Of a DNA stretch of 64,000 nucleotides, positions 41,055-64,000 are shown piece after piece; position 1 is the first letter of the stretch; every line of letters begins with the position of its first letter. Both the position numbers and the translations under genes were made by a program. The stretch spans positions 1 to 64,000 of the IMG/VR virus record IMGVR_UViG_3300020409_001194; one strand, written 5' to 3'. The DNA is from a virus (Duplodnaviria > Caudoviricetes). The notes below the pieces were generated by a model. The model was not told where the DNA came from, did no database searches, and was given only the letters and a program-made list of their open reading frames with translations.

Positions 41055-41356
41055 ACACCAAAACTTTCACCACAACCACATGCGGCTGTAGCATTAGGAT
41101 TGTTTATTACTAATTGTGAACCAGCAAACTGTTCAACATAATCTATTTCAGAACCATAGATATACATCTCAGCAATCTTATCTACAACAATAGTATCTTC
41201 AATTAGTACACCATCATCTGTTGAATCTGTAAATGTCCATGAATATTCAAAGCCAGCACAACCACCACCTTTCATAGATAGATGCGCGTACTTTTTATCC
41301 TGATTACTAATTTTTTCAGTAATGTATTGTTTAGCTTGTGGAGTTATACTAAGCAT
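41051..41356 (-). CDS. iscA: A-type Fe-S carrier IscA/HesB
   Basis: GGGCAGFEY, NPNA..ACGCGESF. Confidence 0.93.
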   Translation of the reverse strand: MLSITPQAKQYITEKISNQDKKYAHLSMKGGGCAGFEYSWTFTDSTDDGVLIEDTIVVDKIAEMYIYGSEIDYVEQFAGSQLVINNPNATAACGCGESFGV

Positions 41357-41928
41357 TAATTAAAGGTCTTTCCTGTAAATTGAGCTGAACCGCCAGTGTC
41401 TTCAATTGTAAATGTATCAAATGAAGATACTGTTGTTCCACCTAATGTTAAAGAAGAACCTGTTATACTTGAAAATGTAGCTCTTGTAGCTGTCAGTGTA
41501 CTATTAGTATCAAATGTAAGATTAGGTAAATTGACATCTGTCATGAATGTAATAGTGCCAGAAGATTTTACATTCAGAGAACCTTCAATATCTACACTAC
41601 CTCTAAGATATGTTTTTCCTACTTGGTTTGTTGTACCGTAGTTAGTCCAGACATCATCAGAATCTGTACCATAGAATATTGCAGTACCATTAAAACTATC
41701 TGAATCAGAACCAAGATAAACACCACCCTGTTTAATATCAATGGTTGAACCTGTAAAGATGGTAGTACCTCTAATACCGACATTACCATTAAAGATAGAT
41801 TGGCCCGTCACTTCTAATCCAGGAAGTGTGACACTCTCTGGATTTTCAAAACCAGTTAAATTACCATCTTCATCAAATGATAATGAGCTGATTATATCTG
41901 CATGTTTTCTTGTTTTACTCTTAGCCAT
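41356..41928 (-). CDS. Putative fibre/virion structural protein
   Basis: MAKSKTR N-terminus, Thr/Gly/Ser beta-rich, DSD motifs, late promoter. Confidence 0.5.
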   Translation of the reverse strand: MAKSKTRKHADIISSLSFDEDGNLTGFENPESVTLPGLEVTGQSIFNGNVGIRGTTIFTGSTIDIKQGGVYLGSDSDSFNGTAIFYGTDSDDVWTNYGTTNQVGKTYLRGSVDIEGSLNVKSSGTITFMTDVNLPNLTFDTNSTLTATRATFSSITGSSLTLGGTTVSSFDTFTIEDTGGSAQFTGKTFN

Positions 41929-41941
41929 ATATTATTTAATC

Positions 41942-43186
41942 TTAACTAGGGTCCATAAACTGAAATGTAGCAACTGTTGAACCAGTTGCGTTTATAATAG
42001 TAAGGTTATACTTACTTGGTATTGATACTTTTTGACCAGCAAGTGTAAACCCATCACTATCAAAGTTTGCACGGCCTTCATTACCTTGTAATGATAGAGT
42101 ACCATCAGAGTCTGCAATATTACCAGTGACGGTCATATTAGTTCTTCTTGACCTATTTCCAAAACTGCCATCACCATCTGAATCATATAATGGTGCAATT
42201 TTAAATGTTCCAGTACCTGTAAGTGGACTTGAAGTAGAGTTTAAAAATCTTACATATGATTTACCAACTACTTGCTTTGGTTGAATAAATGAACTCATTG
42301 CTTGTTCATTTTGAGCATTCATATTTTGTCTGTTTTGACCACCTTTCTGTGTATCATAAGAGCCATCATCTTGTCTTTCAAGATAAAATCCCGAGTCTGA
42401 ATCTGAATCATCTCCTAAGAATCCGAATGTGACATCAGTTGCTTTAAAAATTACTTTACCTTGTAAGTCTAATGTACCAAAACTTACGAATACAGTATTC
42501 TCAGAGTCATGCACGTTTGCTGCACTTTTTGGATAACCAAATTGTAATGGTGTAGTTTCACCAGAAACTCTTGCAATATTGATAGTTTGACCACCTTGCT
42601 TTCTTCCAAAAATTACATTAGAACGCTCGACATATCTACCAATCTTCTTTTTTATTAGAAAATCATTTGCAATGCTCGTGCCATTTGCATAGAGTGAATC
42701 AGAATCCAGTGGAAACTTTCTATGCGCGTTTATCATATTATAAACTCTATCAGTAGTTGGGAAAATATTATCATCTCCCTTAAATAAGTATTGTCCTTTG
42801 AATGTTGTAGTTGTATCTGAATCTGAACCTAAAATAGCATCACGAAAACCTGACCTATAAAACTGCGTGATTTCTGCTGCATTAGGGAACATTTCACCAA
42901 CAATAGGGTTATTAGTAGAAGAAAATCTATTGTATAAGTCTGAATCTGGTTGATTTTGTAAACCCTGTAGAATTCCTCTCGATGTCCTGTAAAAATCGTC
43001 TGTCTCATTTGAATTGTGTGCTATCTGGAAACGACCTACGTTAAGCTTTCCAAATTTTATTGATGTATTATTACTGTTTCCAAAAATTACGGCATCAGAA
43101 TCATCAGACAAATAGAACTTACCACCAGGACCAGTGGGATTTGAGATATTTGCTACTCTTCTTGTTTTAGATATTTTTCGTGCCAT
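41942..43186 (-). CDS. Putative fibre/virion structural protein, DSD-rich
   Basis: ISKTRR N-terminus, about 10 DS[DE]. Confidence 0.5.
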   Translation of the reverse strand: MARKISKTRRVANISNPTGPGGKFYLSDDSDAVIFGNSNNTSIKFGKLNVGRFQIAHNSNETDDFYRTSRGILQGLQNQPDSDLYNRFSSTNNPIVGEMFPNAAEITQFYRSGFRDAILGSDSDTTTTFKGQYLFKGDDNIFPTTDRVYNMINAHRKFPLDSDSLYANGTSIANDFLIKKKIGRYVERSNVIFGRKQGGQTINIARVSGETTPLQFGYPKSAANVHDSENTVFVSFGTLDLQGKVIFKATDVTFGFLGDDSDSDSGFYLERQDDGSYDTQKGGQNRQNMNAQNEQAMSSFIQPKQVVGKSYVRFLNSTSSPLTGTGTFKIAPLYDSDGDGSFGNRSRRTNMTVTGNIADSDGTLSLQGNEGRANFDSDGFTLAGQKVSIPSKYNLTIINATGSTVATFQFMDPS

Positions 43187-43192
43187 AACATT

Positions 43193-43594
43193 CTAAAAAT
43201 TAAAAATTCTTGGTATATCTTTTGTGTTGTCATTTATATCAGATGGTCCTTGCAATGCATCTCTTATGGCACCAGTTGTAGCACCACCACCTCTCACAAG
43301 ACCAGATCCTGAAACTTTTAGATCTGCATTGGAGGCATTGTTTACTATACCGCCACCTGAACCAAAGCCACCAGAACCTAAAATATTTCCATCTACTATG
43401 ACTTTAATATAAGTTGCCTTTGAAAAATGTGGTATTGTGAGTGCTGATATTCCAGGTAATGATGTAAGATTTACACCTTCTGGAATTTCTATAATTACTG
43501 ATGAAACGGATGTTCTTTCAACTTCAGATGGTTCTACAATATAACCAACTTGATCTGATGTGATTTTTTTATAGTATTGAGAATGTACATGCAT
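43193..43594 (-). CDS. Gly-rich protein, gp38-adhesin-like
   Basis: Likely start MHVHSQ; VIIEIPEGV, GNILGSGG.G.GGG, G.VRGGG resemble gp38-type fibre-tip segments. Confidence 0.4.
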   Translation of the reverse strand: MHVHSQYYKKITSDQVGYIVEPSEVERTSVSSVIIEIPEGVNLTSLPGISALTIPHFSKATYIKVIVDGNILGSGGFGSGGGIVNNASNADLKVSGSGLVRGGGATTGAIRDALQGPSDINDNTKDIPRIFNF

Positions 43595-43595
43595 T

Positions 43596-44036
43596 TTAGC
43601 CTGCCGATGCTTCAGTGAAGAACCATTTACTACCGTCAAATGTTCCTGAAGCCATCTTAGCAGAATCGCCTAATGTTGTTCCTTTAGCTCCGGTTCCCCA
43701 ATCAATTGTTAATGTACCATTTGAAACGATGGATAATTGTGAACCTGTAATCCAACCAGAAGTAGGAACTGTGACTGTACCAACACCAGTATGAATTACT
43801 GTTGTCACAAAACTTCCAGCAATGACATTATCATTCGCTGTTAAATTCTGTACGCTTCCTAGAGACCCAGACATTGCAATACTGTTAGCAGCAATATCAC
43901 CAGAACTTACATTACCACTCACATTGAGAGTGCTAGATGTAATACCTTGAGTAATGATATTAGTTATATCAGCATTCGCATCTTGTTGTATAAGATTTGG
44001 TAATTCTGCGAATCTTCTAGTTTTTGATTTTGCCAT
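43596..44036 (-). CDS. Putative short fibre protein
   Basis: MAKSKTR N-terminus, AGGAG RBS, ends FDGSKWF. Confidence 0.5.
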   Translation of the reverse strand: MAKSKTRRFAELPNLIQQDANADITNIITQGITSSTLNVSGNVSSGDIAANSIAMSGSLGSVQNLTANDNVIAGSFVTTVIHTGVGTVTVPTSGWITGSQLSIVSNGTLTIDWGTGAKGTTLGDSAKMASGTFDGSKWFFTEASAG

Positions 44037-44056
44037 AATTTCTCCTACTATATTTA

Positions 44057-46168
44057 TTATCCACTTTCACGTTTGAACCAAACCTGTACATTCATTTGTA
44101 TTGGGTCAATTGGGTTTGAACTTGCATCCCAGGTTCTTACTCTGATTGCTCTATTATTTGGATTTGCTATAAGTGGTTTACCACCAAATACATCAATTGT
44201 TAAACCTGTATCTGAATCTGCTCCAGGACCAGGTGCTACTGCATTTGTTCCTTGAGCATCAATTGATGAGAATATAGGCTGACCTTGAGGTGCACATGTT
44301 GATACTGCCATTGACATATAGAATCCATTTGTATCATTTACTGGTACAACCTCAGAATCTAATAAGAAGTAATATACACCTTCAGCGTGTCTTGAATATT
44401 TTAATTGATCTGAGTCAAAACCAAATGTTGCTCTATCAATAATTTTATTTGGATTAGGACCATTATCTGAGTCAAATGATACTCTCAACCATGCTGCTGT
44501 TAGTGGAGTTTCTCTAATTGCATCTGCAAATTGGTGTGTCCATTGACCACCTGAATATACTAATGCTTCACCAATTCCAGGTTGTTGACCATCGACTGCT
44601 TCATCTACATTTGATAGCTGACCAAGAGAACTTACACCAGCAGTTGGACCACTAAATGAGTATACTGCAACAAAGTCATTTACATTTAGTTTTGTTGGGA
44701 ATAATATGTCATTTCCATTTACCTGATACTCAAGCACTGGTACTTGTGATAATAGTAATCCATTCAGGAATACCAATACGTTTTGTGGGTCATTTGAAGT
44801 TTGTAATACTGGTGAACAATCTACTAATCCAGTTGTAAATCCTGGATGATCAGAATCATTTACTGTAAATGTATGTTCTAATGTTTGGAATGCTTCTGAT
44901 GGTAATCTGTTTCCACCTAATTGGTTTGATACGTTTCTTATCCATACAGCGGATAATTCATCTGAATCTTTAACATAGTTATCTGAATCAAATGCAATCA
45001 TTCTAGATGCTGCATATTCTGCTATTTGATCTGAGTCAGAATCATAAAAATAGAAATCTCCTTGTGCTTGTGATAGATTAATACCATTTAAGAATATAAG
45101 TGGATTACCACCAACACGAGCAACAATAAAGTCAGAATCATTATAGATATCTGAATCTATCATTCTAAATGTTTGGTGAGTACCATTTGCACTTTGTGTT
45201 AAATTACGTGATTTTCTGTAGACAACAAAATCTGAATCTGCAAATCTAAAGTTCTTGTAGAAGTGAGCTACAGTTTCATCAATAGGTGATATAATAGAAA
45301 CTTCATCATTTGCTTTTAAACTACCATAAAATTTTATTGCATCTGATGGACCAGAAACTACCTGATCAACATCTTTAGTTGTGACATTCGCAAGTATCTT
45401 ATAATCAATGAATGCATACTTATCTGAATCTGAATCTCTTGTTGTGGTACCCGCACCAGTGGGAGAACGACCATCTCCAAATGCATCTGAATCAACTGGT
45501 TGTAGGTGACCATTTACAAATACAACGGCATTTGCATTTGAAATTACTTTTGAGAAACCAATCTTTGTATCTGAATCTGTAATTGATTGTGGTGATACTG
45601 CCGCTGATTGAAAGTCAATTGTGAAATTACCAGTCGCATCCGGATCTTGTGGTTCATACTTATTACCAGTCCATCTTAAATATTGTCCAACAGTTGGACC
45701 TTTGTCAGCATTCATATCACTCATTAATCGAGTGGCCATTTCAGCTTGTAATTCTTTTAGTTTAGGGTTATAGTTTATATTTGTTGTTGCTAAATCACTT
45801 CTACTCTTTGCTACCACTGCATTTACAAGAGCATCCATAAAATCACTATCAAAGTGTTGACCAGATCTTATATTTACTGTTGCTGCTGTGTCAATAGCTA
45901 CTTTTCTGTTAGCATCTTTCTGTACTTTTTCAAATACAATTTTATCTTTAATTTTTGTTGAATGTCTTGTTTCAATTGTGGGATTAGCCTGATCAGGTTT
46001 TACTACAAAGATATCACTATCTTTTCCTGAATCATAACTTGCATTATCTCTTTTAACGGATAACGTAGTAAATGTTTCAATTGTATTATCACTATCAATA
46101 CGTGATTTAGTTCCGTCTACAACAAATCCAGCACCTAATTTTGATAAATCTCTTGTCTTTGTACCCAT
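44057..46168 (-). CDS. Putative tail fibre/appendage protein, DSD-rich
   Basis: GQYLRWTGNKYEP and LGQLSNVD...GEALVYSGGQW fibre repeats, three V/IFxNG domains, about 19 DS[DE]. Confidence 0.6.
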   Translation of the reverse strand: MGTKTRDLSKLGAGFVVDGTKSRIDSDNTIETFTTLSVKRDNASYDSGKDSDIFVVKPDQANPTIETRHSTKIKDKIVFEKVQKDANRKVAIDTAATVNIRSGQHFDSDFMDALVNAVVAKSRSDLATTNINYNPKLKELQAEMATRLMSDMNADKGPTVGQYLRWTGNKYEPQDPDATGNFTIDFQSAAVSPQSITDSDTKIGFSKVISNANAVVFVNGHLQPVDSDAFGDGRSPTGAGTTTRDSDSDKYAFIDYKILANVTTKDVDQVVSGPSDAIKFYGSLKANDEVSIISPIDETVAHFYKNFRFADSDFVVYRKSRNLTQSANGTHQTFRMIDSDIYNDSDFIVARVGGNPLIFLNGINLSQAQGDFYFYDSDSDQIAEYAASRMIAFDSDNYVKDSDELSAVWIRNVSNQLGGNRLPSEAFQTLEHTFTVNDSDHPGFTTGLVDCSPVLQTSNDPQNVLVFLNGLLLSQVPVLEYQVNGNDILFPTKLNVNDFVAVYSFSGPTAGVSSLGQLSNVDEAVDGQQPGIGEALVYSGGQWTHQFADAIRETPLTAAWLRVSFDSDNGPNPNKIIDRATFGFDSDQLKYSRHAEGVYYFLLDSEVVPVNDTNGFYMSMAVSTCAPQGQPIFSSIDAQGTNAVAPGPGADSDTGLTIDVFGGKPLIANPNNRAIRVRTWDASSNPIDPIQMNVQVWFKRESG

Positions 46169-46181: not shown

Positions 46182-48533
46182 CTAGTTGACCATTGTGTGA
46201 TACTCAATTGTAATCACATCATCTATAGCGGTGTTTACCGCAAAGTTAATTGTAATGTTAGAACCTGATACCGCAGATGAACTAATATCTACGGTGTGAT
46301 TCACTAAAGCAGTACCTAATCTATTAAAAGATTTTGAATTTAATTGTCTTACACCATTATGAAATACTTTCACATTATCTGCAATCGGTGGTGTGACTGT
46401 ACTTGGTACTACAAATGTAAATGATGAATATGAACCTTCCGAATCATTTACTATATGTTCTTGTGTTATCATTCTAAATGATTCAGCAATATGTTTTGAG
46501 AATATTTGGTCTATATCACTATCATCTCTTATTGCTTGAACAACTCCTCTTGCTGTTCTTTTTTGCAAGTCTGAATCTGAATCAAATGTTTGAATGTAAT
46601 TTTTCTTTAATGTTGCTTTTAAATTTGTACCAGTGACAAGATCATCTGAGTCTAATCTTTGTACTCTATCTAAAATAAGGTTATCAAATCTCACACGTAG
46701 ATCTGAATCTCTACCCATTGAATCAGAATCTGCTGGTACTGAACTCTCAGATATTCTGTTTAGTAGTGAGGTAAATGTTCTTGAAACTAGTTCAGAATCA
46801 GAATCTAGTTTTAGTATTTCTTTTCTTGCTACACTTTGTAGTAGACTGTTCTCAGAATCTTGATTTATTAACTGATTTATAACTATATCAGATAGTCTGT
46901 TTTTAATTAATAGACCATCATCAGAATCTGAGTCTATCACTCTCATTACTATATCATTAGCAATCTTAAGTCTATCTGAGTCTGTGACTGAATTAATTAA
47001 TGCTGTTCTTATGATTCCTAGTTCTGAATCATTACCTTGTAGATATGCGAGTTCAGAATCACCAGTACCATATACAAATTCTCTTAATGGTTTATTAACT
47101 TTTTGTCTATGATTCTTTTCATCACTATCACCGATGTTAACACCATTTCCACCAAGATATCTTACTACTGTTCTTTCTACAAATCTTTTATTAATAGCTT
47201 TGAATTTTCTTGCAAATGATGGATGATACAAGTAATAGTTTGTATGTGTTCTCTTACCACCGCTTGTTGCTCTAGTTCTATAATCGGAATCTTTTAATTC
47301 CATCATAGTGTCTGAATCGACAGCACCAAGTCTGAGTCCCATGAAACCCCAGAAGTTAACATTTCTAGCTATTACATCTGCAATAAAATCTGAATCTTTT
47401 CTTGTAGCTGCAAATACACCAGGTGTGACTTTCTTATCATAACCTAATGAATATCCTTCTGAGTCTGAATCTGTAAGAACTCCTTTACCTTGCAATGAAT
47501 CAATTGTTCCTGCAACACCAGCAAAGCCTTGAAACTCTGAGTCACGTGCAAGGTGACCATAATCCAGATAATCATAGAATAAGTTGAAATGACCTTGATG
47601 TAATGGTTGCGATCTTCTTACAACGGTTTGATATGTTGCACCTAATCTACTAGCAAGTAAGTTTGAACCATAAGTTCTTGTATGACCGGCATTCGTAAAG
47701 TCTGAATCTAGTATAACACCTTCAACAACCGCAGATGCTAGTTTTCTTCTCAAATAATATAGTCTATTTCTAGTTGTATCTGAATCAATTAAATTGTTTG
47801 TGTCTGAGTCGTGTCTTAGTGAACCATAAGAGATGTCTCTGTTAAATGGTAATAGATTTCTTTCAGTAGAACTTGCTGCTCTTCTTAAACCAATGGCATT
47901 TTCTTCAAAGTAATCTAGGAATACTTCAAGAAAATCTGTTGCCGCGGGTAAATCAGAATCATAGTGTGCAGGTAAATTTTTAGCAATAGTTTTATATCCA
48001 TCACTGTCGTTCTTTACAACATTTAATTCACCTTGTAGCCTTCTTAATTCTACCTGATCGTATCTTAAGAAGTTTATAAAGTATGCTTTTAGTAATGTTT
48101 TAAAACTAACAAATTTAGATGATGAGTCAGAGTCTGCCGCAAGTAAAACATGTGGTGCTCCTCTGTAAGTGTTTCCAGCACCATCATCATAGGAAATTGG
48201 TATGCTGTCTATAAATGTTCTGAGTTTTGACCAGTCGGCTTGATTTGGACCGGTACCATTATCAATTGCAGAAGTCTTACTCCAGCCAGATGGCTTTCCA
48301 TAATATTCTACGAGGTGATCGCTGTCTATATTTTGATATATAGTATTAATGACATCTGAATCCATGGTGCGTGCGATAGCGCGAACATAGTGTCTGAGGT
48401 CATCAGATACACGTTTCGAGTCGTGTGCCGTTACGCCACGAGAGTCATATATTTTTGAGATTTTAGCCCATTCAGAACGTAAACCCGTTACGTCGGTTTG
48501 AAATGGTCGTATCTCGGAATCATTTAATGCCAT
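46182..48533 (-). CDS. Large DSD-rich putative virion protein
   Basis: 783 aa, about 30 DS[DE], C-terminal VFHNG domain like those in 44057 ORF. Confidence 0.55.
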   Translation of the reverse strand: MALNDSEIRPFQTDVTGLRSEWAKISKIYDSRGVTAHDSKRVSDDLRHYVRAIARTMDSDVINTIYQNIDSDHLVEYYGKPSGWSKTSAIDNGTGPNQADWSKLRTFIDSIPISYDDGAGNTYRGAPHVLLAADSDSSSKFVSFKTLLKAYFINFLRYDQVELRRLQGELNVVKNDSDGYKTIAKNLPAHYDSDLPAATDFLEVFLDYFEENAIGLRRAASSTERNLLPFNRDISYGSLRHDSDTNNLIDSDTTRNRLYYLRRKLASAVVEGVILDSDFTNAGHTRTYGSNLLASRLGATYQTVVRRSQPLHQGHFNLFYDYLDYGHLARDSEFQGFAGVAGTIDSLQGKGVLTDSDSEGYSLGYDKKVTPGVFAATRKDSDFIADVIARNVNFWGFMGLRLGAVDSDTMMELKDSDYRTRATSGGKRTHTNYYLYHPSFARKFKAINKRFVERTVVRYLGGNGVNIGDSDEKNHRQKVNKPLREFVYGTGDSELAYLQGNDSELGIIRTALINSVTDSDRLKIANDIVMRVIDSDSDDGLLIKNRLSDIVINQLINQDSENSLLQSVARKEILKLDSDSELVSRTFTSLLNRISESSVPADSDSMGRDSDLRVRFDNLILDRVQRLDSDDLVTGTNLKATLKKNYIQTFDSDSDLQKRTARGVVQAIRDDSDIDQIFSKHIAESFRMITQEHIVNDSEGSYSSFTFVVPSTVTPPIADNVKVFHNGVRQLNSKSFNRLGTALVNHTVDISSSAVSGSNITINFAVNTAIDDVITIEYHTMVN

Positions 48534-48589
48534 TGGTCACCAATTATAAAGTATACTTGTTTTATTTATTCTTAGTGAATAAATAATTC

Positions 48590-48997
48590 ATGGCAATACA
48601 ACAGACATTTCAAAGAAAAAGCAAATATAAGGATTTTGATCTGAACTTTACAAAACACCCTCTTACTAATGATCTTGCGGTCAAAAAAGGTGTTGCAGCA
48701 GTAAATCAATCTGTGAAGAATTTAATTCAAACTGCGTTCTATGAGAGACCGTTTCAACCGACACTTGGTTCTCAAGCAAGAAGTCTTTTATTTGAGACTG
48801 CTGATGCTATTACTATATCGAACATGAGAAGAGTTATCAAAGAGGTAATTCAAAATCATGAACCACGAGTACGTATAAAAAATATTGTCATAAGAGATAT
48901 GACAGATTCTAATGCTTATGGCATTGAGTTAAGATATGAAATGAAAGATATAAAAACAGATGAGAACCTAAGCATAGTTCTCGAAAGATTGAGGTAA
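48590..48997 (+). CDS. gp25: Baseplate wedge subunit
   Basis: YKDFDL.F..HP.T.D, AV.QSVKNL..T...ERPF.P..GS, NHEPRV. Confidence 0.92.
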   Translation: MAIQQTFQRKSKYKDFDLNFTKHPLTNDLAVKKGVAAVNQSVKNLIQTAFYERPFQPTLGSQARSLLFETADAITISNMRRVIKEVIQNHEPRVRIKNIVIRDMTDSNAYGIELRYEMKDIKTDENLSIVLERLR

Positions 48998-48999
48998 TA

Positions 49000-50814
49000 A
49001 TGCCAGACGAAAGACCAGTTGTAGCAAATCCTGATTTTGAAGATATAAAACAGGATATAATTTCACATTTTAAAGCAGACGCAACATTTGCAGACTATGA
49101 TTTTAAAGGTTCAGCAATGAACACCATCGTAGATATTCTTGCATATAATACTCATTATAATAATCTAGCGGCAAATTATCTTATAAATGAATCATTCTTA
49201 GACACAGCACTTATGAGAAATAATATTATTTCTATATCTAAGATGTTAAACTACACACCTCGTTCTAAACAAGCCGCAAAAGCAAAGATTACTCTCAGAA
49301 TTCCAAAGATAAACGATACAAATGTTTATACGATTCCATCAGGTAGTTTATTTACCGCTACTGATGGTACAACCACATTTAATTTTTATACACTGAAAAA
49401 CTTTAGTGTTCAATATGATGCTTCAGATGCGAATGGTACTACAAGAGATGTTGAAGTAGAAATATGTGAAGGTGATAAGATCACACAAAGATTTTCTGCA
49501 ACTGCAGATCATACTAGCTTTCCTAGATTTGAATTAGGTAATAAGAATATTGACACTACATCTATAAATGTTTCTGTAAATGGAAGTTTATGGACACCAG
49601 TCACAAATGAAACTCAAGGAACAACTGATGTTTCAAATCTAAGTACAATATATTTTATAGAAGAATCAAGAAACCTATCACATAATATTATGTTTGGTAA
49701 TGGTGTTCTTGGAAAAAAACTAGAAGTTGGAGATGAAATATTAGCTACATACCTCGTCACTAACGGATCAGATGCAAATGGTATCAATTCATTCTCAGTT
49801 GGAATAGCTGGTAGATCTGACATTACAGTAGTCACTACAAAATCTGCCACTGGTGGTGGAGATATGGAAACAATTCAAGAGATAAAAGATAATGCACCAA
49901 ATTGGTTTCAAGCACAGTTTAGAGCTGTGACAGAGAATGATTATAAAGCCATATTAAAAAAGGAGTATGCAGATATTCAAGCCTTAAATGTATATGGTGG
50001 AGAAACTGTAGGTAAACCTGGTAAAGTATTCTTTTCAATCAAGCCAAAATCTGGTGATAAACTAACTGAACAAGCAAAGCTAACAATAACAAGAGATATA
50101 CTTTCTAAATTTAACTTAGTGACTGTCACACCTCAAGTTGTAGACCCACTTATTACAAGAATCATTGCAAAGACAGTTATACAATATGATAATGCTAAAC
50201 TTGCAACAAGCCCAGAAGTATTAGAAGCTAAAGTATTATCATTATACAATATCCTAAACACATCATATATTGGTGATTTCATGGAATCATTCTCAGTATC
50301 AAGATTAATGCAAGAGATTTTAAAACTAGATAAAGCTATTACTGCTGTAAATCCGAGAGTAAATTTAAGATTCAATCTAAATGCAAAAGATGGTTTATTA
50401 GATAATTCATCATTTACATTTAATAATAGACTACACACTGAACCATTTGCTGGTGAAGCATCTGTTGGTGGTGTAATCACATCAAACTTATTTAGAAGAT
50501 CTGGTAGAACAAACTTTTCTAGATTTGTAGATGATGGTAAAGGAGTTATAAGACTTGTAGATGTTATTGAAGGAGAAAATGTAATTGTAAACACCGCCGG
50601 CGGTACAGTAAATTATGAAACAGGTGAGGTAAATATTAGTGACTTTGACCCAGAAGATGGACAGATAGGTATCATAGCGGTACCAGAATCTTTTGATGTT
50701 AATGTTGCTGGTAATTATCTTTTACAAATATCTACAGGAGATTCTACAGTGAGAGCGATAGATAAAGACGACACAGCTTCACTGAACTTATTTAATGTAT
50801 CGAGAGCAAGTTAA
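49000..50814 (+). CDS. gp6: Baseplate wedge subunit
   Basis: DFEDIK, F.DYDF.GS, DILAYNTHY, NESFLD.A..R, YTPRS, FGNGVLGK, Q.RAVT..DY, GKVF.SIKP. Confidence 0.93.
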   Translation: MPDERPVVANPDFEDIKQDIISHFKADATFADYDFKGSAMNTIVDILAYNTHYNNLAANYLINESFLDTALMRNNIISISKMLNYTPRSKQAAKAKITLRIPKINDTNVYTIPSGSLFTATDGTTTFNFYTLKNFSVQYDASDANGTTRDVEVEICEGDKITQRFSATADHTSFPRFELGNKNIDTTSINVSVNGSLWTPVTNETQGTTDVSNLSTIYFIEESRNLSHNIMFGNGVLGKKLEVGDEILATYLVTNGSDANGINSFSVGIAGRSDITVVTTKSATGGGDMETIQEIKDNAPNWFQAQFRAVTENDYKAILKKEYADIQALNVYGGETVGKPGKVFFSIKPKSGDKLTEQAKLTITRDILSKFNLVTVTPQVVDPLITRIIAKTVIQYDNAKLATSPEVLEAKVLSLYNILNTSYIGDFMESFSVSRLMQEILKLDKAITAVNPRVNLRFNLNAKDGLLDNSSFTFNNRLHTEPFAGEASVGGVITSNLFRRSGRTNFSRFVDDGKGVIRLVDVIEGENVIVNTAGGTVNYETGEVNISDFDPEDGQIGIIAVPESFDVNVAGNYLLQISTGDSTVRAIDKDDTASLNLFNVSRAS

Positions 50815-55112: not shown

Positions 55113-56524
55113 TGGCAACTGTAGGTAAAGTCACCAACGAATTAAAAACACTTTTATCAAAGTCAACACGTGATGAGATAAGAGATACTTCAAATGATGA
55201 TTCATTCTATGCGTTTATAGCCTATACAGATTCTGAAGACTATCCCTTCAGTGACTCAGACGCTTCTGAGGCTGTAACGGATTCAGATCTAATAGGAGTA
55301 TATAAGAATATGGTCACGATGCACCGAGTGCTGCCTGGTGGTGTTTCTCGAGTGATTAAAAGAAAGAACTGGGTAAGTAATAGAAAATATGTCGGTTGGA
55401 ATACAGATACTTCTAATGATAGTGACTATTATGTTATGTCAACTGAGATTGTACAAGGTGTACCGAGACAAAATGTATATAAGTGTTTGAATGCACCATC
55501 GGCAGTATCATCTACAGTCGCTCCTACAGGTTCATCATCATTACCATTTAAAACATCTGATAATTATTGGTGGCAATATATGTACACGATTACAAATTCA
55601 GATGCTATTTTATTTATGACAAGTGCATTTATGCCTATACCTGAAAGAGTTGATGCTGCGGAAGCAGAGAACGTAACGTCAGGTACAGCGAGATATGATT
55701 TGCTACAAGTTCAAAACAATGCTATTAAGGGTTCTGTATTCAATGTGCGTATTAAACATGGTCCTAATGAAAGACCAGACTCAGATAAACTGAGAGGTTT
55801 TACAAGTAAACTAGTTGTAAATATTAAAGGTAAAGATGGTACTGGTGGTACACCTACACAAGAGTTTAAAGCTACTGCAACAAGAGATAGTGAACAATCC
55901 GCAGTATGGAAATTTGAAGTTCAACAATATGGTATTGGTTATACTGCACTGCCTTATGCAACTGACTCTGAGAATGATTCTGAAATAGGATGTTTCAGAT
56001 TAGATATGGCTCCAGGTCTTGGACATGGTGCTGATCCGGGTGATGAACTACAAGCAAGAGATGTTATGATGACATCACGTGTAATTCCATTAGATAATGG
56101 ATTTAGAGAATTAGCAAAAGGTGAGTTTAGTATGATAGGTCTAATAAAGAATCCTATAGATACAGCCACAAACAGAGTTGCTACACAGAATTATTATACA
56201 GTAGCGAAAAAAATAACATGTGATAACACAGCATTGTTTAAGATAAATGATAACTTCTTTAAACAGGGTGATTCAGATTTTGCTGGTAAAGTTGTAGCAG
56301 TAAGTGGTAAAGATGTTTACTATATCAATACAGGAAAACTAAGAAACAATTTCTCAGATAGTGATAATATTATTTCAACTAACCATAACAATGTAATTAA
56401 GAAGGCGAAGAGTTCTGAAGTTAACTTCAACAGTGGTAAAATGTTAGCTGTTGACTACTTACCGACAGCACTAGAAAGATCTGAAGATCAGATAGAATCA
56501 TTGAACATTATCTTGAAATTGTAA
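55112..56524 (+). CDS. gp8: Baseplate wedge subunit
   Basis: SRVI.R.NW, NVYKCL, S...PTG, D.YWW.YMYTI, F....FMP, GHG.DP..EL, IGLIKNP, R..DQ.E...II; about 10 DS[DE]. Confidence 0.85.
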   Translation: MATVGKVTNELKTLLSKSTRDEIRDTSNDDSFYAFIAYTDSEDYPFSDSDASEAVTDSDLIGVYKNMVTMHRVLPGGVSRVIKRKNWVSNRKYVGWNTDTSNDSDYYVMSTEIVQGVPRQNVYKCLNAPSAVSSTVAPTGSSSLPFKTSDNYWWQYMYTITNSDAILFMTSAFMPIPERVDAAEAENVTSGTARYDLLQVQNNAIKGSVFNVRIKHGPNERPDSDKLRGFTSKLVVNIKGKDGTGGTPTQEFKATATRDSEQSAVWKFEVQQYGIGYTALPYATDSENDSEIGCFRLDMAPGLGHGADPGDELQARDVMMTSRVIPLDNGFRELAKGEFSMIGLIKNPIDTATNRVATQNYYTVAKKITCDNTALFKINDNFFKQGDSDFAGKVVAVSGKDVYYINTGKLRNNFSDSDNIISTNHNNVIKKAKSSEVNFNSGKMLAVDYLPTALERSEDQIESLNIILKL

Positions 56525-56552: not shown

Positions 56553-59500
56553 ATGTCAACAATTAACTTAAACGTATCGCCATACTTTGACGATTTTGAT
56601 GAGTCTAAGGATTACCTTAGAGTCCTATTTCGACCTGGTTTTGCGGTTCAAGCAAGAGAGTTAACACAACTTCAAACAATATCACAAAAACAAACCTCAA
56701 GATTAGGTAATCATATATTTAAAGATGGTTCTCGAGTAAATGAAGGTAATATAAACATTAACTTTAATGTTCATACCATGAATTTAATCTCTGGTTCGGG
56801 TAATGTTAATTTCCCACTATCAGGAGCACTTTCTGGTTCTATTGAGGGAACAATAGGTAATTTCTCAGAAACAATTATATCGAACCAAGACAATACTATT
56901 CAAGCAAGAGTTTTAAGAACACCTACTGGTTCTATTGAAACCAATAAGACTGGTAATATTTACTTCACTTATATTACATCAAAACAATTTAGTGATTCAG
57001 ATGAAGGTTATATCTATGCAAGAAGTGAAGATAATCCTGAAAACACAGTCACTTATGCAAACGTATACACGAGTGTTAGTCCAGCAACGACAGCAACTGT
57101 TCTCTCAGGTGTGTACTATGTGGATGGATTTTTCTCAAGAATTACAGAACAAAATGTAGTTGTATCATCTACAACAAATAAACCCACAGCAGCAATAGGT
57201 TTTTCAATAACATCTAAGGCCATATCTGCAAATGATGATGCAACATTATTTGATAATGCACGAGGTTCTACGAACGAAGGTGCACCAGGTGCGAATAGAT
57301 TACAGAACGCAATTAGTATTCTTATTAAGAGTACATTAGATCAAGGTTCTGATCCGACATTTTATAAACAAATAGAGATTAAAGATGGTGTAATTTTAGG
57401 AGATACAGAACCTACACCACAGGGATTAAGAGTTTCATCAAACCCACAGTACAATGGTATTGGAGATGAATTAGCTCGAAGAAGGAAAGATGAATCAGGT
57501 TCTTATGCTGTCAAAAAATTCATTGCAAAAATTCAAGAACAAACATACGATGATTCAGATAAATTTGCAGTTTCATTTAGTAAAGGTTTAGCATACGTTA
57601 ATGGTTATAGATATGAATCATTTGCTGATGAACTAATATACCTAAATAGAAATGCAACAGCTAAAAAACAAACAAATCAAAAAGTAGCTATCAAAGGAGC
57701 ACCATACGTTGAAGTTAAAAACGTATCTAGTGGTACTCTATCTGGTATGTTAACTACAGATGCTAATGGTGTTGGTGCATACGCTAATAAAGTTTCATTA
57801 AAAGATTCTGATGGTCACACAATTGGTTTTGCAAGATCTTATGGATATCAAGCAACTAACGGTGAAACAAACGGTAGAGTATATCTGCATGATATAAAAA
57901 TGTTTCAGCATATAAGATTTGGAGCATCATCTTCTTTTGATTCAGATGCTTCTGCTTATTGGAGAGATGCTTTAATTGCAGGTGAACAAGTCACTGCGAA
58001 CCTTAATGGTAAAGTACAAACAGCAGATGTTGTAAAATTAGACGGATCAAATGTAGCTGATTCAGATTGGACAGATATTAATATCACCACAAATGGTGAA
58101 GCAAGACTTGGTGGTACCGCTAGTTATAAAACAACTGGTGTACTACTCACAAATTCAAATGCACAATTTCAAAAAGGTGCTAAGATTGGATATGATATTA
58201 CAAGAACTCCAACAGTCTCACCTAGAATTGAAAATGCAAGACAGTTTAAGTTTTCTGAAGTAAGAAGAATTAAAGGTTCAACAAATGATTCCGAAGGTGT
58301 TTCATTTGATGCTACTACTGAATGGACTCCAGGTACAGGTGCAACATTAAAGAATGTTTCAGGTAAACTATTCGGAGAAAGTCAAAAAACATATAAAACA
58401 TTACGTTCTGGAACAGTACCATTTGATAATGACTTTGAAGTACTTTATAAATCACCACCTACAATTTCCTCAACAGATGGAAGTTTAGCTGTCACACCAG
58501 ACTTTTCTAATACTCAATGGTCATCGCACTTTAGAAATGGTGACTATAAGAAAACTAGAGTTGATGATGCTGTAGAGATTACTAAAGAGTTAAAATATGG
58601 TGTTCTTAAAATTAGAAATACATCAGATATTACACGTACGTCATCAGTTAACTCATCATGGTCAGCACAAGATAGAAAGATAAACTTATTCTATCCAGAT
58701 ATTTACAAAGTTTATAAGATAGTACAAGGTTCCACTAATAATACTTTTGGTACATCAACAACTGATCCTAATGCATCATTTACTTCTATTGTAGTAAACA
58801 TTTCTGGTGGTGCTACAATACCTCAAGGTTCAGTGATTGTAGGTCAATCATCGAAGACACGTGCAAGAGTTGCACTATCAAATACTATCGCAACTGGTGA
58901 ATCAACTAAATCAGGTTCTACTGGTTATCATGTTATGAGATCAGGTACTGGTGCAAGTGATAAGCTTGAAGTTTGCTTTGAAAAAGGTTCAGCATTCACA
59001 GCAGGTGAATCATTAAGAGTAGATGTTCCAGAAAGAGAAACTCCTATCACAGCAAACATTACATTTACATCTGTTGATACTAAAGTTGAAGGTGCAGATA
59101 TTACTGCAAACTATCTTTTAGATAATGGTCAAAGAGTTGATTACTATGGTATAGGTTCTATTATAAGAAAAACTGGAGTACCAGCACCAAGCAATGGTGA
59201 TATATTAGTATTCTACTCATACTTTGATGCTAATCCATTTGAATCATTCTATTACAGTGTCGATTCATATTCAGGTGATGGTTTCTATAAAGTTGACCCA
59301 AGATATTATGGTAGACCTATAGAAATAAAAGATTATGATGCTACAACTGGTACTAACCTAAGAAATGTAATTGACTTTAGATTCAGACAAAGATTAATAG
59401 ATGGTTATGCAACAACTAATAACCCACTCTCATTTAGATATAGAGAACTTGAAAATACTGGTGTAAGTATAATTCCAGATGGAAGTTTCTTTACAGATGC

Positions 59501-62500
59501 AGAATACTTTACAGCACAAAATATTTCATTTGTTCTAAATAATAAAGGAAGAATTAAAACATTCTTTGGTGTAGAAGATGTCACTAATCCAAAAGACCCA
59601 GATATTCAAGTAGATGGTATGCTTCTCGCCACAATACAAGTTCCACCTGCAGTAAGATATCCAGCAAGAGAGATATCTTTATTTAGTGATCAGCAGCGTG
59701 GATACACAATGAGAGATATTGGAAAACTCGAAAAACGTATTAAAAATTTAGAAACATCTGTTAGCCTATCTCTCTTAGAGAGCAAAGCATTACAAGATAA
59801 TATTGGAACGAGAGTAAAATCAGGATTTATTGTAGATGACTTTTCATCAACTACACAAACACCTGCAGAATTAACAAATAAAAACTTTAGAGCTTCAATA
59901 GATACTCAAAAAAATGTGTTAAGACCACCATCTGTAGAATCTAATGTACAACTTGAGAGAGTGAATGATGGTACGAATATAGACCCATTCTTCTTATCAC
60001 AGAATACACCATTCATAGTGAAGTCATACACTGAAGATCAGATGTTAGAACAAACATTTGCTTCTAGTCTTATAAGAATTAATCCTTATGCAACATGGAC
60101 TTATTCAGGTAATATTGAACTAAATCCAACACAAGATTTCTGGAGAGATCCGTCATGGAATGTTGTTGAAAACTTCTTTATTGATAGAACATCTTTTGGT
60201 GGTGGTATTACAAGTGTATCTCAGACAGTGTTTGATAACCTTACACCAGTCACAAGAGATATACCTAATTCTGAGTTCAATACAACAGAAACAAACTGGA
60301 CTGGTACAGTCACATCCACTGCAACAACCACAACAGATAACTTCTTATGGTGGTTGGGAGGTACAACAACAACTACTACAACTACAACAGTTCCTATTGG
60401 TACTGAAACAACAAGTAATTTCATTGCACAGGAAGAAGAGTTTACAAGTTCATCAGACTTTAATGTAAGAGAAGTAAGAGAAAGAGATGATGCTTGGATA
60501 AGATCGCAGACTATAGAATTTGAAGGTCAAGGATTTAGACCTAATACTGATTTAAAAGCTATATTTGACGGTGTCACTGTCACAAATAACTGTGCACAAA
60601 CAGATTTCTTACCACTAACTACCACATCAGCTAGAACATTTGCTGCTAACGGTAGTTTAAGAACAGATGGTAAGGGACAAATACGTGGTAGATTTGTAGT
60701 TCCATCACAAACATTTAAAACAGGAACTAAAGGATTTATACTTACAGACTTAGATGGATCAGCCACAACTGAAGGTACAGTATTCTTTACATCTCGTGGA
60801 TTCTTTGAAGTAGGTGATTTAACAAGCTTCAGAGCTACAAGAGATGCAGGTGCAAGATTACTTTCATCATCATCAACAGCTGTTGCTGGTGAAGCAACTT
60901 CTACAACTACTACTACCACAACACCATTTATATGGCCAATTGGAAATGTTTGGTTTGGTGATCCGATAGCACAACTATTTACATTACCACTTGACCCTGG
61001 TTCAGATCCGAATAATTTCAATCCAGTAAATAATGAAGCAAGAGTGACAGGTTCATTTATAACTTCAGTAGATATATTCTTAGGATTTGTAGATACAAGA
61101 GCTAATAACGATCATGTAATTTGTGAAATTAGAAGTACTGAAAATGGATATCCAGGAGGTACAATTCTTGGTAGAGCAAGAGTAGATGTCACTAAGGCAA
61201 ATCAAAACTTAACAAAACCAGAAATTGCAACAAACTTTAGATTTACAAATCCAGTATTCTTACAAGAAGCAACTGAATATGCAATTGTTTTACTTTCTCC
61301 ATCAGATACTACATCAGCATGGACAGCATTACAAGGTGAAGAAGATGTGATTACTGGTGGTAAGATTGATGCACAACCGAATGTCGGTGGATACTTTGGT
61401 TCATTCTTTAAATCACAAAACGGTTCTTCATGGACAGCTGAACAAAATAGAGACTTAACATTTAAAGCTTATCGAGCTAAATTTACAACAGCTGAATCTA
61501 CAATTACATTAAGAGATAAAGCTAACTTCTATGGTCAGCCGATTGGACAAGCAGCAAGCGGATTAGCAGTAGAGACATTTGATAGTTCTTACTATATAAA
61601 AATACATCACCCTAACCATGGAATGTATGGTCCAGATGACACACATACAGTTAGAATTCTTGGAGTTGCTGGTAATGGTAATATATCTGCATCTGCTGAT
61701 TCTGACTTAGTAAGATTTAGAGGTGAATCAGCATTAAACGGATTACCTGTATCACTTATTAATAATGTATCTTCATTGGCAAATCTTACAAGTTCAACTA
61801 CAACTGCAAAACACAAAGTAAAATTTGCAACACAAGATTCTTACATTATTGATTTAAGAGAACAAGATTCAGATGGTGCTCAAATTAATACAAATCCAGT
61901 CACTGGTGGTTGGCATAAAAATGTTAAAGCAGGTAGAGGTGGTGGAGAGTTAGTAGTTGCTACTTCTAACGTTCAGTTTGATTCTATAAGAACTAATACT
62001 CAACCAGTTAACTTTGATGAAACATCAGTATCACAAGAAGTAAAAACAACTACTGGTGCAAACCTAATATTGAGATCAGCATCTAACTTATTTGGTTATA
62101 ACACTGATTCAATATATTATAAATCACCGCTAGTTAAAGATACGAGTGCAGTTAATCTTCCAATGGATAAACTTACAGACTTTGAACATCCGCAGGTTGT
62201 GCTTGGTTCAATGAACAAAACAGCATCAGCAGACTTTGAACAAATTCTTAAATTGAACACAGCAAATGAATTCTTAACACCAGTAATAAGATTAGATGCT
62301 GCAAGTCAAATGTTTGTATATAAAAATAATTTTGGTCAATTCATTGATGATTCAGAATTAGCTGGATTTATTGACTCAGATCTCTCAGCATCATCATCAG
62401 AAGCACAACAAAGACAATATGCATCTTTCAAAGCTGGTCTTTCAAGTATTGATGAAACAGCAGGTTATATTACAAAGGATATTATATTAGAAGTTCCCGC

Positions 62501-62810
62501 AACTCAGATAAGAGTATTCTTAGATGCTGACATGGATCCAGCCGCAGAAGTTATATTAAAGTATAAAGCTAGAGCTGTAGGTGATAACACAGAATTTGAA
62601 GAACTAGAGTGGAAAACATTCCCACGAAATCAAATTATAAATGAAACAAACTTCGGTAAATTTACATCAGACGTGAGTTTCGATCAATACTCACTAACAC
62701 AAGATGTTGGTTTTGAGTTTGAAGCTTTCAAAATAAAAATTGAATTTGTTTCTCAAAACTCTTCATTCATTAGTATGATAAGAGACTTGAGGATTATAGC
62801 AGTAGTATAA
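56553..62810 (+). CDS. Large VrlC-like (DUF4815) virion structural protein
   Basis: NLNVSPYFDDFD...Y.RVLFRPG.AVQARELTQLQ, APGA.R, ARR..DESG.Y, YTMRDIGKLE.RI.NLE, KSGF.VDDF, DPIAQ.F, FKSQN.S.W. Confidence 0.88.
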   Translation: MSTINLNVSPYFDDFDESKDYLRVLFRPGFAVQARELTQLQTISQKQTSRLGNHIFKDGSRVNEGNININFNVHTMNLISGSGNVNFPLSGALSGSIEGTIGNFSETIISNQDNTIQARVLRTPTGSIETNKTGNIYFTYITSKQFSDSDEGYIYARSEDNPENTVTYANVYTSVSPATTATVLSGVYYVDGFFSRITEQNVVVSSTTNKPTAAIGFSITSKAISANDDATLFDNARGSTNEGAPGANRLQNAISILIKSTLDQGSDPTFYKQIEIKDGVILGDTEPTPQGLRVSSNPQYNGIGDELARRRKDESGSYAVKKFIAKIQEQTYDDSDKFAVSFSKGLAYVNGYRYESFADELIYLNRNATAKKQTNQKVAIKGAPYVEVKNVSSGTLSGMLTTDANGVGAYANKVSLKDSDGHTIGFARSYGYQATNGETNGRVYLHDIKMFQHIRFGASSSFDSDASAYWRDALIAGEQVTANLNGKVQTADVVKLDGSNVADSDWTDINITTNGEARLGGTASYKTTGVLLTNSNAQFQKGAKIGYDITRTPTVSPRIENARQFKFSEVRRIKGSTNDSEGVSFDATTEWTPGTGATLKNVSGKLFGESQKTYKTLRSGTVPFDNDFEVLYKSPPTISSTDGSLAVTPDFSNTQWSSHFRNGDYKKTRVDDAVEITKELKYGVLKIRNTSDITRTSSVNSSWSAQDRKINLFYPDIYKVYKIVQGSTNNTFGTSTTDPNASFTSIVVNISGGATIPQGSVIVGQSSKTRARVALSNTIATGESTKSGSTGYHVMRSGTGASDKLEVCFEKGSAFTAGESLRVDVPERETPITANITFTSVDTKVEGADITANYLLDNGQRVDYYGIGSIIRKTGVPAPSNGDILVFYSYFDANPFESFYYSVDSYSGDGFYKVDPRYYGRPIEIKDYDATTGTNLRNVIDFRFRQRLIDGYATTNNPLSFRYRELENTGVSIIPDGSFFTDAEYFTAQNISFVLNNKGRIKTFFGVEDVTNPKDPDIQVDGMLLATIQVPPAVRYPAREISLFSDQQRGYTMRDIGKLEKRIKNLETSVSLSLLESKALQDNIGTRVKSGFIVDDFSSTTQTPAELTNKNFRASIDTQKNVLRPPSVESNVQLERVNDGTNIDPFFLSQNTPFIVKSYTEDQMLEQTFASSLIRINPYATWTYSGNIELNPTQDFWRDPSWNVVENFFIDRTSFGGGITSVSQTVFDNLTPVTRDIPNSEFNTTETNWTGTVTSTATTTTDNFLWWLGGTTTTTTTTTVPIGTETTSNFIAQEEEFTSSSDFNVREVRERDDAWIRSQTIEFEGQGFRPNTDLKAIFDGVTVTNNCAQTDFLPLTTTSARTFAANGSLRTDGKGQIRGRFVVPSQTFKTGTKGFILTDLDGSATTEGTVFFTSRGFFEVGDLTSFRATRDAGARLLSSSSTAVAGEATSTTTTTTTPFIWPIGNVWFGDPIAQLFTLPLDPGSDPNNFNPVNNEARVTGSFITSVDIFLGFVDTRANNDHVICEIRSTENGYPGGTILGRARVDVTKANQNLTKPEIATNFRFTNPVFLQEATEYAIVLLSPSDTTSAWTALQGEEDVITGGKIDAQPNVGGYFGSFFKSQNGSSWTAEQNRDLTFKAYRAKFTTAESTITLRDKANFYGQPIGQAASGLAVETFDSSYYIKIHHPNHGMYGPDDTHTVRILGVAGNGNISASADSDLVRFRGESALNGLPVSLINNVSSLANLTSSTTTAKHKVKFATQDSYIIDLREQDSDGAQINTNPVTGGWHKNVKAGRGGGELVVATSNVQFDSIRTNTQPVNFDETSVSQEVKTTTGANLILRSASNLFGYNTDSIYYKSPLVKDTSAVNLPMDKLTDFEHPQVVLGSMNKTASADFEQILKLNTANEFLTPVIRLDAASQMFVYKNNFGQFIDDSELAGFIDSDLSASSSEAQQRQYASFKAGLSSIDETAGYITKDIILEVPATQIRVFLDADMDPAAEVILKYKARAVGDNTEFEELEWKTFPRNQIINETNFGKFTSDVSFDQYSLTQDVGFEFEAFKIKIEFVSQNSSFISMIRDLRIIAVV

Positions 62811-62992
62811 TGGATAAACGCTATTTAAAAAGAGATCCGAAGAGTGGTGCTCTATTAAATACTAATAGAGAAGAAGTTATAGAATATAAGAAAAGAATAG
62901 AAAAAGAAGCTCAAACTGAGAGAAGATTAACAACATTAGAAACAAAAATGGATAAGATATTAGAAGTAATGGAGAAGATAGCAAATGGCTAA
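62810..62992 (+). CDS. Small conserved protein downstream of VrlC-like gene
   Basis: L.RD..SGA.LNT followed by coiled coil. Confidence 0.65.
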   Translation: MDKRYLKRDPKSGALLNTNREEVIEYKKRIEKEAQTERRLTTLETKMDKILEVMEKIANG

Positions 62993-63827
62993 CTTAAGAG
63001 ATATATTAGTACCTAATTTTGGATTTGCAGATTCAGATGCACAAGTAGGTATTGCTCCAGTTAATACACAATCTGGTACTATAGCATTTAATGATGCTAA
63101 TAGAATTGTTAAAAATAATGTAAGAATTAATGTTGGTTCATCTCCAAACTCAAACACAGGTGACCCATTAAGAACTGCTTTTATTAAAGTAGGAAACTTT
63201 ATGGAAGCCGTTTACAGAGCGGACTCTGATAAAGATTTACGTATAAAAAGATTTGAAACTCCAGTAGGTGATTCAGATTTTAGAATTCTTGGTGTTAAAG
63301 AAGCAAACGATTTAAGATGGGATTCAGATGCAATACACACAAATTTAGGAAATGCTAATACAGGTTTTGATAGTGATACATTTGCAGGTTTAAAACCTGG
63401 AGATACACTTGTCCTTACAAATAGAATTGACCCATCTAGCAGACAAGTTTTTGTAGATAAATTCTCTCGTTCTAATCCACACGGTCGTATTGATATTAAT
63501 ACTGTAAGACTTAAAAACAATGAGTATAGTATAAATGCTCCAGCTTTCTTAAAAGTTGGTGATGATGGATTACTAAAAGTTCAAACTGAATTTGCATTAG
63601 ATCAAGTTGGTTTAGACTTCGATGGTGCACTAGAAAGATTAAGTGCAGGTACACAGAAAAGTAAATTATCTGCAGCTGATCAGAAACAGCTCTATCAAGA
63701 TTTCAACGATGTGCAAGGTTTAACATCATCATCATTCAGATTAAGTGCTAGCAACGTAGAAGATGCCTTTGCAGAACTAATGGCAAGACAAGTAAGAGTC
63801 GGATATGATGCAGGGTTCTATGGATAA
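62985..63827 (+). CDS. Baseplate/fibre connector with gp9/gp10-like N-terminal motif
   Basis: INVGSSPN..TGDPLR.AF.K; ASNVEDAF.EL; 5 DSD. Confidence 0.6.
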   Translation: MANLRDILVPNFGFADSDAQVGIAPVNTQSGTIAFNDANRIVKNNVRINVGSSPNSNTGDPLRTAFIKVGNFMEAVYRADSDKDLRIKRFETPVGDSDFRILGVKEANDLRWDSDAIHTNLGNANTGFDSDTFAGLKPGDTLVLTNRIDPSSRQVFVDKFSRSNPHGRIDINTVRLKNNEYSINAPAFLKVGDDGLLKVQTEFALDQVGLDFDGALERLSAGTQKSKLSAADQKQLYQDFNDVQGLTSSSFRLSASNVEDAFAELMARQVRVGYDAGFYG

Positions 63828-64000
63828 TGAGTACAAATGTCGACAGTAAAGAACAATTTTTCTGGATTCACAATAGCACCAACCGGATTTGGTGGCGATT
63901 CTGATAATGACTCAGATTTCGGCGAAAATCTAAACCGTTCAATTCAAGCAATCAATAAATCATATTCCATCAAGGCTGGAATTCAAAACACTTTCATAGA
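63827..64000 (+). CDS. Start of next structural protein (truncated)
   Basis: MSTNVDSKEQFFWIHNSTNRIWWR in one frame; adjacent frame reads ...FGGDSDNDSDFGENL; TAATG coupling. Exact start/frame uncertain. Confidence 0.35.

Follow-up and report, generated by a model that had tools for sequence, protein, structure and literature searches.

We analyzed the first 64 kb (the window) of a 108.9-kb viral contig of ~34% G+C, IMG/VR record IMGVR_UViG_3300020409_001194, which derives from an uncultured marine T4-like phage, and found that its outer tail proteins are strewn with the tripeptide D-S-[D/E], written here as DS[DE]. In the contig as a whole, 16 tail, baseplate, neck and fibre proteins (9515 amino acids (aa)) contain 178 copies, compared with ~9.6 expected from composition, an enrichment over chance of about 20-fold, and the rest of the proteome (26 kaa) contains 6. 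The tripeptide is strict at each of its positions, is selected as a peptide and is under purifying selection, is restricted by clade, lies in predicted loops of its carrier proteins and shifts at its third position between clades. The reading we prefer is that DS[DE] is a sequon with a covalent modification on its serine; we hold it tentatively, giving it a little less than an even chance of being right.

The window holds a T4-like tail and baseplate module with gp25-, gp6-, gp7- and gp8-like proteins and a giant DUF4815/VrlC-like protein, and fibre-like open reading frames (ORFs) on the strand opposite to the baseplate genes. Past the window, the contig encodes gp13/14-like neck proteins, gp15, a gp9/10-like protein, a 724-aa protein, the sheath, tube and portal, and also an Ad2 adaptor, a prohead protease, a scaffold and the major capsid protein. 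The carriers in the window, with the two inner wedge proteins that form the contrast set, are as follows:

41356..41928, minus strand: 190-aa ORF, function unassigned, 2 DS[DE] (0.18 expected)
41942..43186, minus strand: 414-aa fibre-region ORF, 10 DS[DE] (0.36 expected)
44057..46168, minus strand: 703-aa fibre-like ORF, 19 DS[DE] (0.84 expected)
46182..48533, minus strand: 783-aa orphan ORF, the densest carrier, 31 DS[DE] (1.14 expected)
48590..50814, plus strand: gp25-like and gp6-like inner baseplate wedge, contrast set, 0 DS[DE]
50814..55112, plus strand: gp7-like baseplate wedge protein of 1432 aa, 32 DS[DE] (1.57 expected)
55112..56524, plus strand: gp8-like baseplate wedge protein of 470 aa, 10 DS[DE]
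56553..62810, plus strand: DUF4815/VrlC-like giant structural protein of 2085 aa, 10 DS[DE] (1.49 expected)
62985..63827, plus strand: 280-aa structural ORF, 5 DS[DE] (0.30 expected)
63837..64000 (to 64931 in the contig), plus strand: start of a gp13/14-like neck protein, 8 DS[DE], 2 of them in the window

Expectations from composition were 0.2–1.6 per protein, and significance was assessed with 500 shuffles of each. For every carrier with at least 5 motifs, the observed number was reached by 0 of 500 shuffles; for the 190-aa ORF with its two motifs, it was reached by 4 of 500. Divided by third residue and set against the composition of the 16 carriers, DSD occurs 135 times (6.4 expected) and DSE 43 times (3.2 expected). 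An earlier note, made from the window's sequence alone, had drawn attention to the motif with counts that we reproduced for the listed carriers (31 for the 783-aa ORF, where it had about 30) and for its contrast proteins (none in gp6, gp25 and gp48, one each in gp53 and gp5), and the excess holds once composition is corrected for. Only the extent of the trait needed amending: the window carriers stand as described, but the trait also reaches beyond the window, into gp13/14-like neck proteins, gp15, the gp9/10-like protein, the 724-aa protein, the sheath and the Ad2 adaptor.

The tripeptide tolerates D only at position 1, S only at position 2 and D or E at position 3. In the carriers, conservative exchanges at the first two positions are at or below background (ESD 0, ESE 1, DTD 1, DTE 1), threonine not being used in the middle (5.4 DTD and 2.8 DTE expected), and the further middle-residue variants DAD, DGD and DND, with 4, 3 and 5 copies, are at or below expectation. 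The dipeptide DS is followed by D or E in 178 of its 226 occurrences; DSA (5 versus 4.75 expected), DSI, DSL and DSV are at background in the carriers of this contig, which have two copies of DSN. The flanks of the motif show no further consensus and no conserved acidic residues or glycine. Copies are dispersed, with few DSDSD doublets and no long repeats, and no carrier matches another in BLASTP comparisons among them; the motif is therefore not a shared repeat domain.

The earlier note had proposed that selection is on the peptide, and both codon usage and frame counts bear this out. Serine codons within the motif follow background usage (TCA 94, TCT 54, AGT 25), the commonest motif 9-mer has the frequency predicted by the product of codon frequencies, and at homologous motif columns of gp8 the serine is encoded by TCN or AGY codons depending on the lineage. 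Of the degenerate DNA pattern for the motif, 178 copies are in frame, whereas the two other sense frames together have 3 and the antisense strand has another 3. Background codon usage together with 178 in-frame copies against 6 in the five other frames rules out a cause at the DNA level. The D content, S content and net charge of the gp6, gp7, gp8 and VrlC-like proteins of tagged (motif-carrying) phages lie inside the range of their untagged orthologues; because composition and charge match in this way, and given the shuffles, neither composition nor bulk charge can be the selected trait. The target of selection is thus the peptide with its order of residues, rather than DNA, composition or charge.

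We used structural models and domain maps to place the motif within its carriers. The AlphaFold2 (AF2) model of the gp8-like protein (mean predicted local distance difference test (pLDDT) score 83) matches T4 gp8 (1n7z) in Foldseek with an E-value of 3.4e-10 and a probability of 1.0; there is also a weak PF09215 match, and the gene order gp25-gp6-gp7-gp8 is kept, so that the carrier at 55112-56524 is predicted to have the T4 gp8 fold and stands in the expected wedge position. Compared with secondary structure assigned by DSSP, 10 of the 10 motifs in this model are in coil or coincide with the residue that opens a helix or strand; several lie just before a strand or at a helix start, and 3 are in or beside low-confidence loops. 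In the sheath, all five motifs fall at residues 101-283, within outer domains that are inserted between the conserved inner domains of the Pfam map, and all five in gp15 fall in a C-terminal extension past the Pfam domain. The earlier note's expectation that the motif had entered conserved folds in loops is upheld by the gp8 model, the sheath outer domains and the gp15 extension, and the motifs as modelled lie in exposed loops or peripheral extensions. The carriers are outer tail, baseplate, neck and fibre proteins only. There are no copies in gp25, gp6, gp48, tube, portal, protease or scaffold, and the single copies in gp53, gp5 and the major capsid protein are at chance level. The same partition into carriers and non-carriers is repeated in a distant tagged relative (L008) whose gp8 is 35% identical, and the gp25- and gp6-like proteins have no DS[DE] there or in another distant tagged relative, L029.

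That several gp8-model motifs start a helix or immediately precede a strand raises the alternative that DS[DE] is a structural turn or capping motif (an Asx-turn, ST-motif or helix/strand N-cap) with neither ligand nor modification, D and S being common capping residues. We consider this quite unlikely, since the 20-fold excess is limited to the outer tail proteins of one clade, the homologous folds of sister phages having none, and since the helix- and strand-rich gp6, portal, major capsid protein and enzymes of the same phage show no excess. Moreover, T cannot replace S, nor E the first D, even though both cap well.

To examine the conservation of the motif, relatives were retrieved as loci with a gp8 profile and sorted as strongly tagged, intermediate and untagged; the reference relative was an IMG/VR contig with ~84% amino-acid identity (L007/G001). 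This contig keeps 97 of 104 tripeptides at a background identity of ~83%, a level at which ~57% would be expected. Retention is seen in carrier after carrier, with 2 of 2 motifs kept in the 190-aa ORF, 8 of 10 in the 414-aa ORF (at 51% identity outside the motifs), 18 of 19 in the 703-aa fibre-like ORF, 30 of 31 in the 783-aa ORF and 29 of 32 in the gp7-like protein. Judged from this sequence comparison, DS[DE] is under purifying selection. Among these carriers, Pfam and PHROG searches with the 190-aa ORF gave no match and neither did family and cultured-phage searches with the 783-aa ORF; for the 280-aa ORF, homologues were found in the tagged clade only. The related contig also encodes two proteins of 216 and 321 aa with 5 DS[DE] each (G001 36231-36881 and 41968-42933; L309:16231-16881 and L310:1968-2933), with function unassigned, in a part of the genome that is missing from our contig.

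Over larger distances the number of motifs is better kept than their positions. Homologues of gp8 between 94% and ~30% identity have 3-10 motifs, most of them 4-10, apart from one at 30% that has 2, and homologues more distant than ~30% have 0-1. Some motif columns are common to most members, and others move a few positions along a loop or indel region. A roughly constant number with moving positions would be the behaviour of short linear sites and not of fold-determining residues.

The comparison with homologues also confirmed the motif as lineage-specific. In the strongly tagged clade the ratio of observed to expected DS[DE] over the whole locus is mostly ~9-19, with a minimum near 7, and in intermediate clades it ranges from ~2 to 11. 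In untagged clades it is ~1 or below despite a syntenic baseplate module (L009, G015-G018, G029). The trait is thus on or off among syntenic modules, with L008 tagged and L009, HTVC008M, Mosig, Syn9 and G029 untagged; the untagged cultured relatives are the Pelagibacter phages HTVC008M and Mosig and the Synechococcus phage Syn9. None of the cultured phages searched belongs to the strongly tagged clade, and in phage C48C1 the excess is limited to the gp7-like protein and one fibre. In the HTVC008M tail module (L091) the tripeptides SFE, FEG, VFE and FET are 8-13 times over-represented in large tail proteins; this excess, of a motif distinct from DS[DE], may stem from four paralogous "wedge initiator" proteins. 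Within the tagged clade, a holin-like membrane protein of 149 aa and a T4-type lysozyme (39941-41054) are 65-72% identical, compared with 30-47% for the structural proteins, and because these two are so much more conserved, the clade may share one host group.

Clades differ in the third position of the motif. Both DSD (104 versus 13.8 expected) and DSA (66 versus 14.2) are in excess in the intermediate clades, whereas DSE is not (5 versus 8.5), and in the VrlC-like protein of sister clades DSD and DSA exchange at homologous sites. Two loci, L230 and L233, have an excess of DSA, DSD and DSN, and they belong with L073, L083, L085, L089 and L054 to a set of sister T4-like loci with D-S-[D/A], in which the motif often follows a hydrophobic residue. 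Such a shift fits a changed acceptor specificity, in which D-S would be followed by a small or acidic residue according to the preference of the lineage. By extension, marine T4-like phages might possess clade-specific "virion sequon codes", D-S-[D/E] on the loops of every outer tail protein here and D-S-[D/A] in the sisters, each read by an unrecognised writer that modifies the serine, a proposal that we regard as plausible but rather less than evenly balanced. The writer would not necessarily be a glycosyltransferase (GT); it would co-evolve with its sequon, and the groups on the tail would affect adsorption, stability or recognition.

The earlier note had offered two readings of the motif, a modified serine and a metal-binding surface, and the third-position shift bears on the second of them. 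The motif does bring together two acidic side chains and a hydroxyl, its sites are in exposed loops and the clade is marine, so that a distributed divalent-cation (Ca2+/Mg2+) or electrostatic surface could be imagined, on which seawater cations lend stability to the tail or link it with host polysaccharide. This reading is weakened because the sister clades swap DSD and DSA at homologous sites and because net charge, like D/E content, is the same as in untagged orthologues. A cation site would also not be expected to hold the middle position strictly to serine or to refuse E at position 1, as the variant counts above show, and the sites have no DxDxDG-type or EF-hand-like Ca2+ loop context, their flanks being without an acidic/glycine pattern. 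We therefore judge the cation surface distinctly improbable, and of the two original readings we keep the sequon, at the strength given above and with no specific enzyme attached to it.

The sequon reading is supported by the strictness of the motif, its exposure, its restriction by clade, its turnover at a roughly constant number and the shift at its third position. Under it, DS[DE] would be a recognition tag displayed on exposed loops and extensions of outer tail, baseplate, neck and fibre proteins, and its central serine would be covalently modified inside the infected cell. If the serine is modified, the assembled tail would therefore bear hundreds of copies of one and the same chemical group. 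The most likely chemistry would be O-glycosylation, possibly with a methylated sugar, and the leading candidate writer would be an operon of GT-A and methyltransferase (MT) genes of the phage itself, described below.

The proposed system resembles several known ones in part. The general O-glycosylation sequon of Bacteroidetes is D-(S/T)-(A/I/L/V/M/T), and it is used in the periplasm. Like DS[DE] it has three residues with Asp ahead of the modified hydroxy residue, and the D-S-A of the sister phage clades fits it. However, in the tagged clade threonine is not accepted and the third position is D or E, rather than an aliphatic residue, Ala or Thr, and phage tails assemble in the cytoplasm. Phage-encoded glycosyltransferases beside structural genes have reportedly been found, by Freeman et al. 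in 2023, to decorate mycobacteriophage virions; the glycans are said to be carried by C-terminal extensions of the subunits of capsid and tail tube and not to follow a defined tripeptide sequon. Capsid and tube, the targets there, are untagged in our phage. The closest likeness in the acceptor itself is to the staphylococcal Ser-Asp repeat adhesins, which SdgB and SdgA O-GlcNAcylate, SdgB acting on Ser in DSD (PMC3794999). The acceptor serine is flanked by Asp, the protein is surface-exposed and only Ser is used, but the staphylococcal substrates are long tandem (SD)n repeats, whereas the phage tripeptides are single, dispersed over many folds and allow E at position 3. Both Sdg enzymes are of the GT-B type (GT4), and a scan for GT-B enzymes with Pfam, NCBIfam and PHROG, which covered most of the larger ORFs, returned only the AGT-like PF11440 protein beside genes for hydroxymethylcytosine (hmC); no SdgB-like enzyme was recognised among the ORFs covered. 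Finally, methylation at an ELS motif, dependent on a host methyltransferase and needed for host binding, is known for a tail protein of a mycobacteriophage (PMC13445384). This too is a short acidic/Ser motif on a tail protein, with the lesson that a writer can be host-encoded, but it concerns another motif at a single site of a single protein and is not proteome-wide. In the literature searched we found no description of a DS[DE] motif in phages.

We looked for the writer in and beyond the window, where three clusters with sugar-related genes are found:

contig 71139-73883 (L001:11139-13883), minus strand, beyond the window: compact operon of GT-A, methyltransferase-like, GT-A and GT-A genes
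1..3102, minus strand: NDP-sugar dehydrogenase (1930-3102) and two unannotated ORFs, a possible sugar-supply cluster with no link to the tag
9558..12180, minus strand: AGT-like GT-B, GalE-like epimerase and small nucleotidyltransferase, for which sugar modification of hmC-DNA is the simplest reading

The first of these comes immediately behind the fibre operon, lies on the other strand so that it converges with the fibre genes, and is itself followed by an AspH-like oxygenase (contig 74877-75644) and an SDR protein. Its GT-A ORF at 73200-73883 was modelled by AF2 with a pLDDT of 86, and a DLD motif is invariant in 13 homologues. Foldseek matches this model to LgtC, alpha-1,3-GalT, LARGE1, UGGT, glycogenin and GlyE (E ~1e-8, TM-score up to 0.68), and the ORF matches PHROG 1962 "glycosyltransferase" (E 8e-11); there was no Pfam or NCBIfam match and hence no membership of the curated GT8 family. 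From the model, the protein is predicted to have a retaining GT-A (GT8/GT6-like) fold with a DxD motif. The operon has two further GT-A paralogues, and its methyltransferase-like product is a class-I protein of 215 aa with an INTSCEH motif. Wherever this region is visible in a tagged or intermediate contig, the GT/MT pair adjoins the tail module. We regard the operon beside the fibres as the leading writer candidate, albeit an unlikely one taken on its own; a host enzyme, or a different enzyme of the phage, is just as possible.

Other candidates were set aside. The clade-specific genes at 39941-40390 and 40458-41054 were identified as the holin-like membrane protein and the lysozyme mentioned above. 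A radical-SAM protein (G001 47631-49148) has matches in tagged records only, but the association is not significant. In the distant tagged phages G008 and G010, 4-5 tandem ORFs of ~400-480 aa stand beside the GT/MT pair and tail module (L105:12577-19055 and L106:5974-11305), at least three of which match the radical-SAM query, and the intermediate phages G021 and G024 have 2-3. The proposal of a Maf-like writer found no backing at the sequence level, and two ORFs of 415 aa and 361 aa were without a Pfam or PDB match; the 415-aa protein is the full-length form, in the related contig (G001), of an ORF in the 1..3102 cluster.

A number of these results weigh against a modified serine. The modification, the attached group and the attaching enzyme are all things that we infer. 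No gene tracks the tag, contrary to the enzyme that the earlier note had expected to co-occur with it, and no convincing candidate emerged when the presence or absence of all G001 proteins was tabulated for 7 tagged, 7 intermediate and 8 untagged records. Homologues of both the GT-A and the methyltransferase-like protein are present in the untagged G029 and Mosig and in many untagged IMG/VR loci (dozens for GT-A); neither gene alone nor the pair is therefore a specific correlate of the tag. The AspH-like hydroxylase is similarly non-specific, the untagged Mosig having three, and the radical-SAM family has >4000 relatives in the protein collection, many of them on large contigs, and is therefore not clade-specific. 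Searched with PF01973 (Maf/MptE-like) at E<=1, neither this genome nor G001 nor any of four DS[D/A] records gave a match. Although exposed, the major capsid protein has only a single DS[DE] copy. Avoidance of the motif in non-virion proteins, seen in our contig (3 versus 9.4 expected), is not robust (16 versus 17.6 in G001); untagged phages have a general observed/expected ratio of 0.57, and measured against this baseline, non-structural proteins show no avoidance of the motif.

The sequence-specific, clade-specific behaviour in exposed loops that speaks for a sequon would be the same for a docking site, bound during tail assembly or on the virion by a reader without enzymatic activity, for example a host factor or a phage protein that serves as decoration, cement or chaperone, and the third-position shift fits any co-evolving reader. 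Yet the compared contigs hold no clade-specific candidate gene for such a reader, and hundreds of sites on many unrelated proteins would be unusual for a binding partner; we rate this as quite improbable. A small share of our belief, on a par with that given to the capping motif, goes to explanations outside those considered.

If the serine is modified, DS[DE] would be, in the literature searched, the first proteome-wide sequon of a bacteriophage virion. It would provide a readable tag that predicts decorated tail surfaces across a whole uncultured clade of abundant ocean phages, and a handle on how marine phages tune adsorption, stability and escape from recognition; as a three-residue acceptor tag it might also be of use in protein engineering. 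Even unmodified, a tripeptide so strict and so strongly selected needs explaining and has potential as a clade marker.

Among the other genes of the window, the ORF at 29343-30143 and a fatty-acid-desaturase-family protein at contig 80390-81190 are paralogues (27.5% identity, E 2e-19), so that the placing of a tape-measure-like gene just downstream of the gp26/gp51 frameshift region (29126-29340) should be taken with caution. The window further encodes an alternative-oxidase/PTOX-like protein (23340-23903), a B12-binding radical-SAM methyltransferase-like protein (20204-21781) and, amid the baseplate genes, a PAP2 phosphatase adjoining a HAD acid phosphatase (36982-38159).

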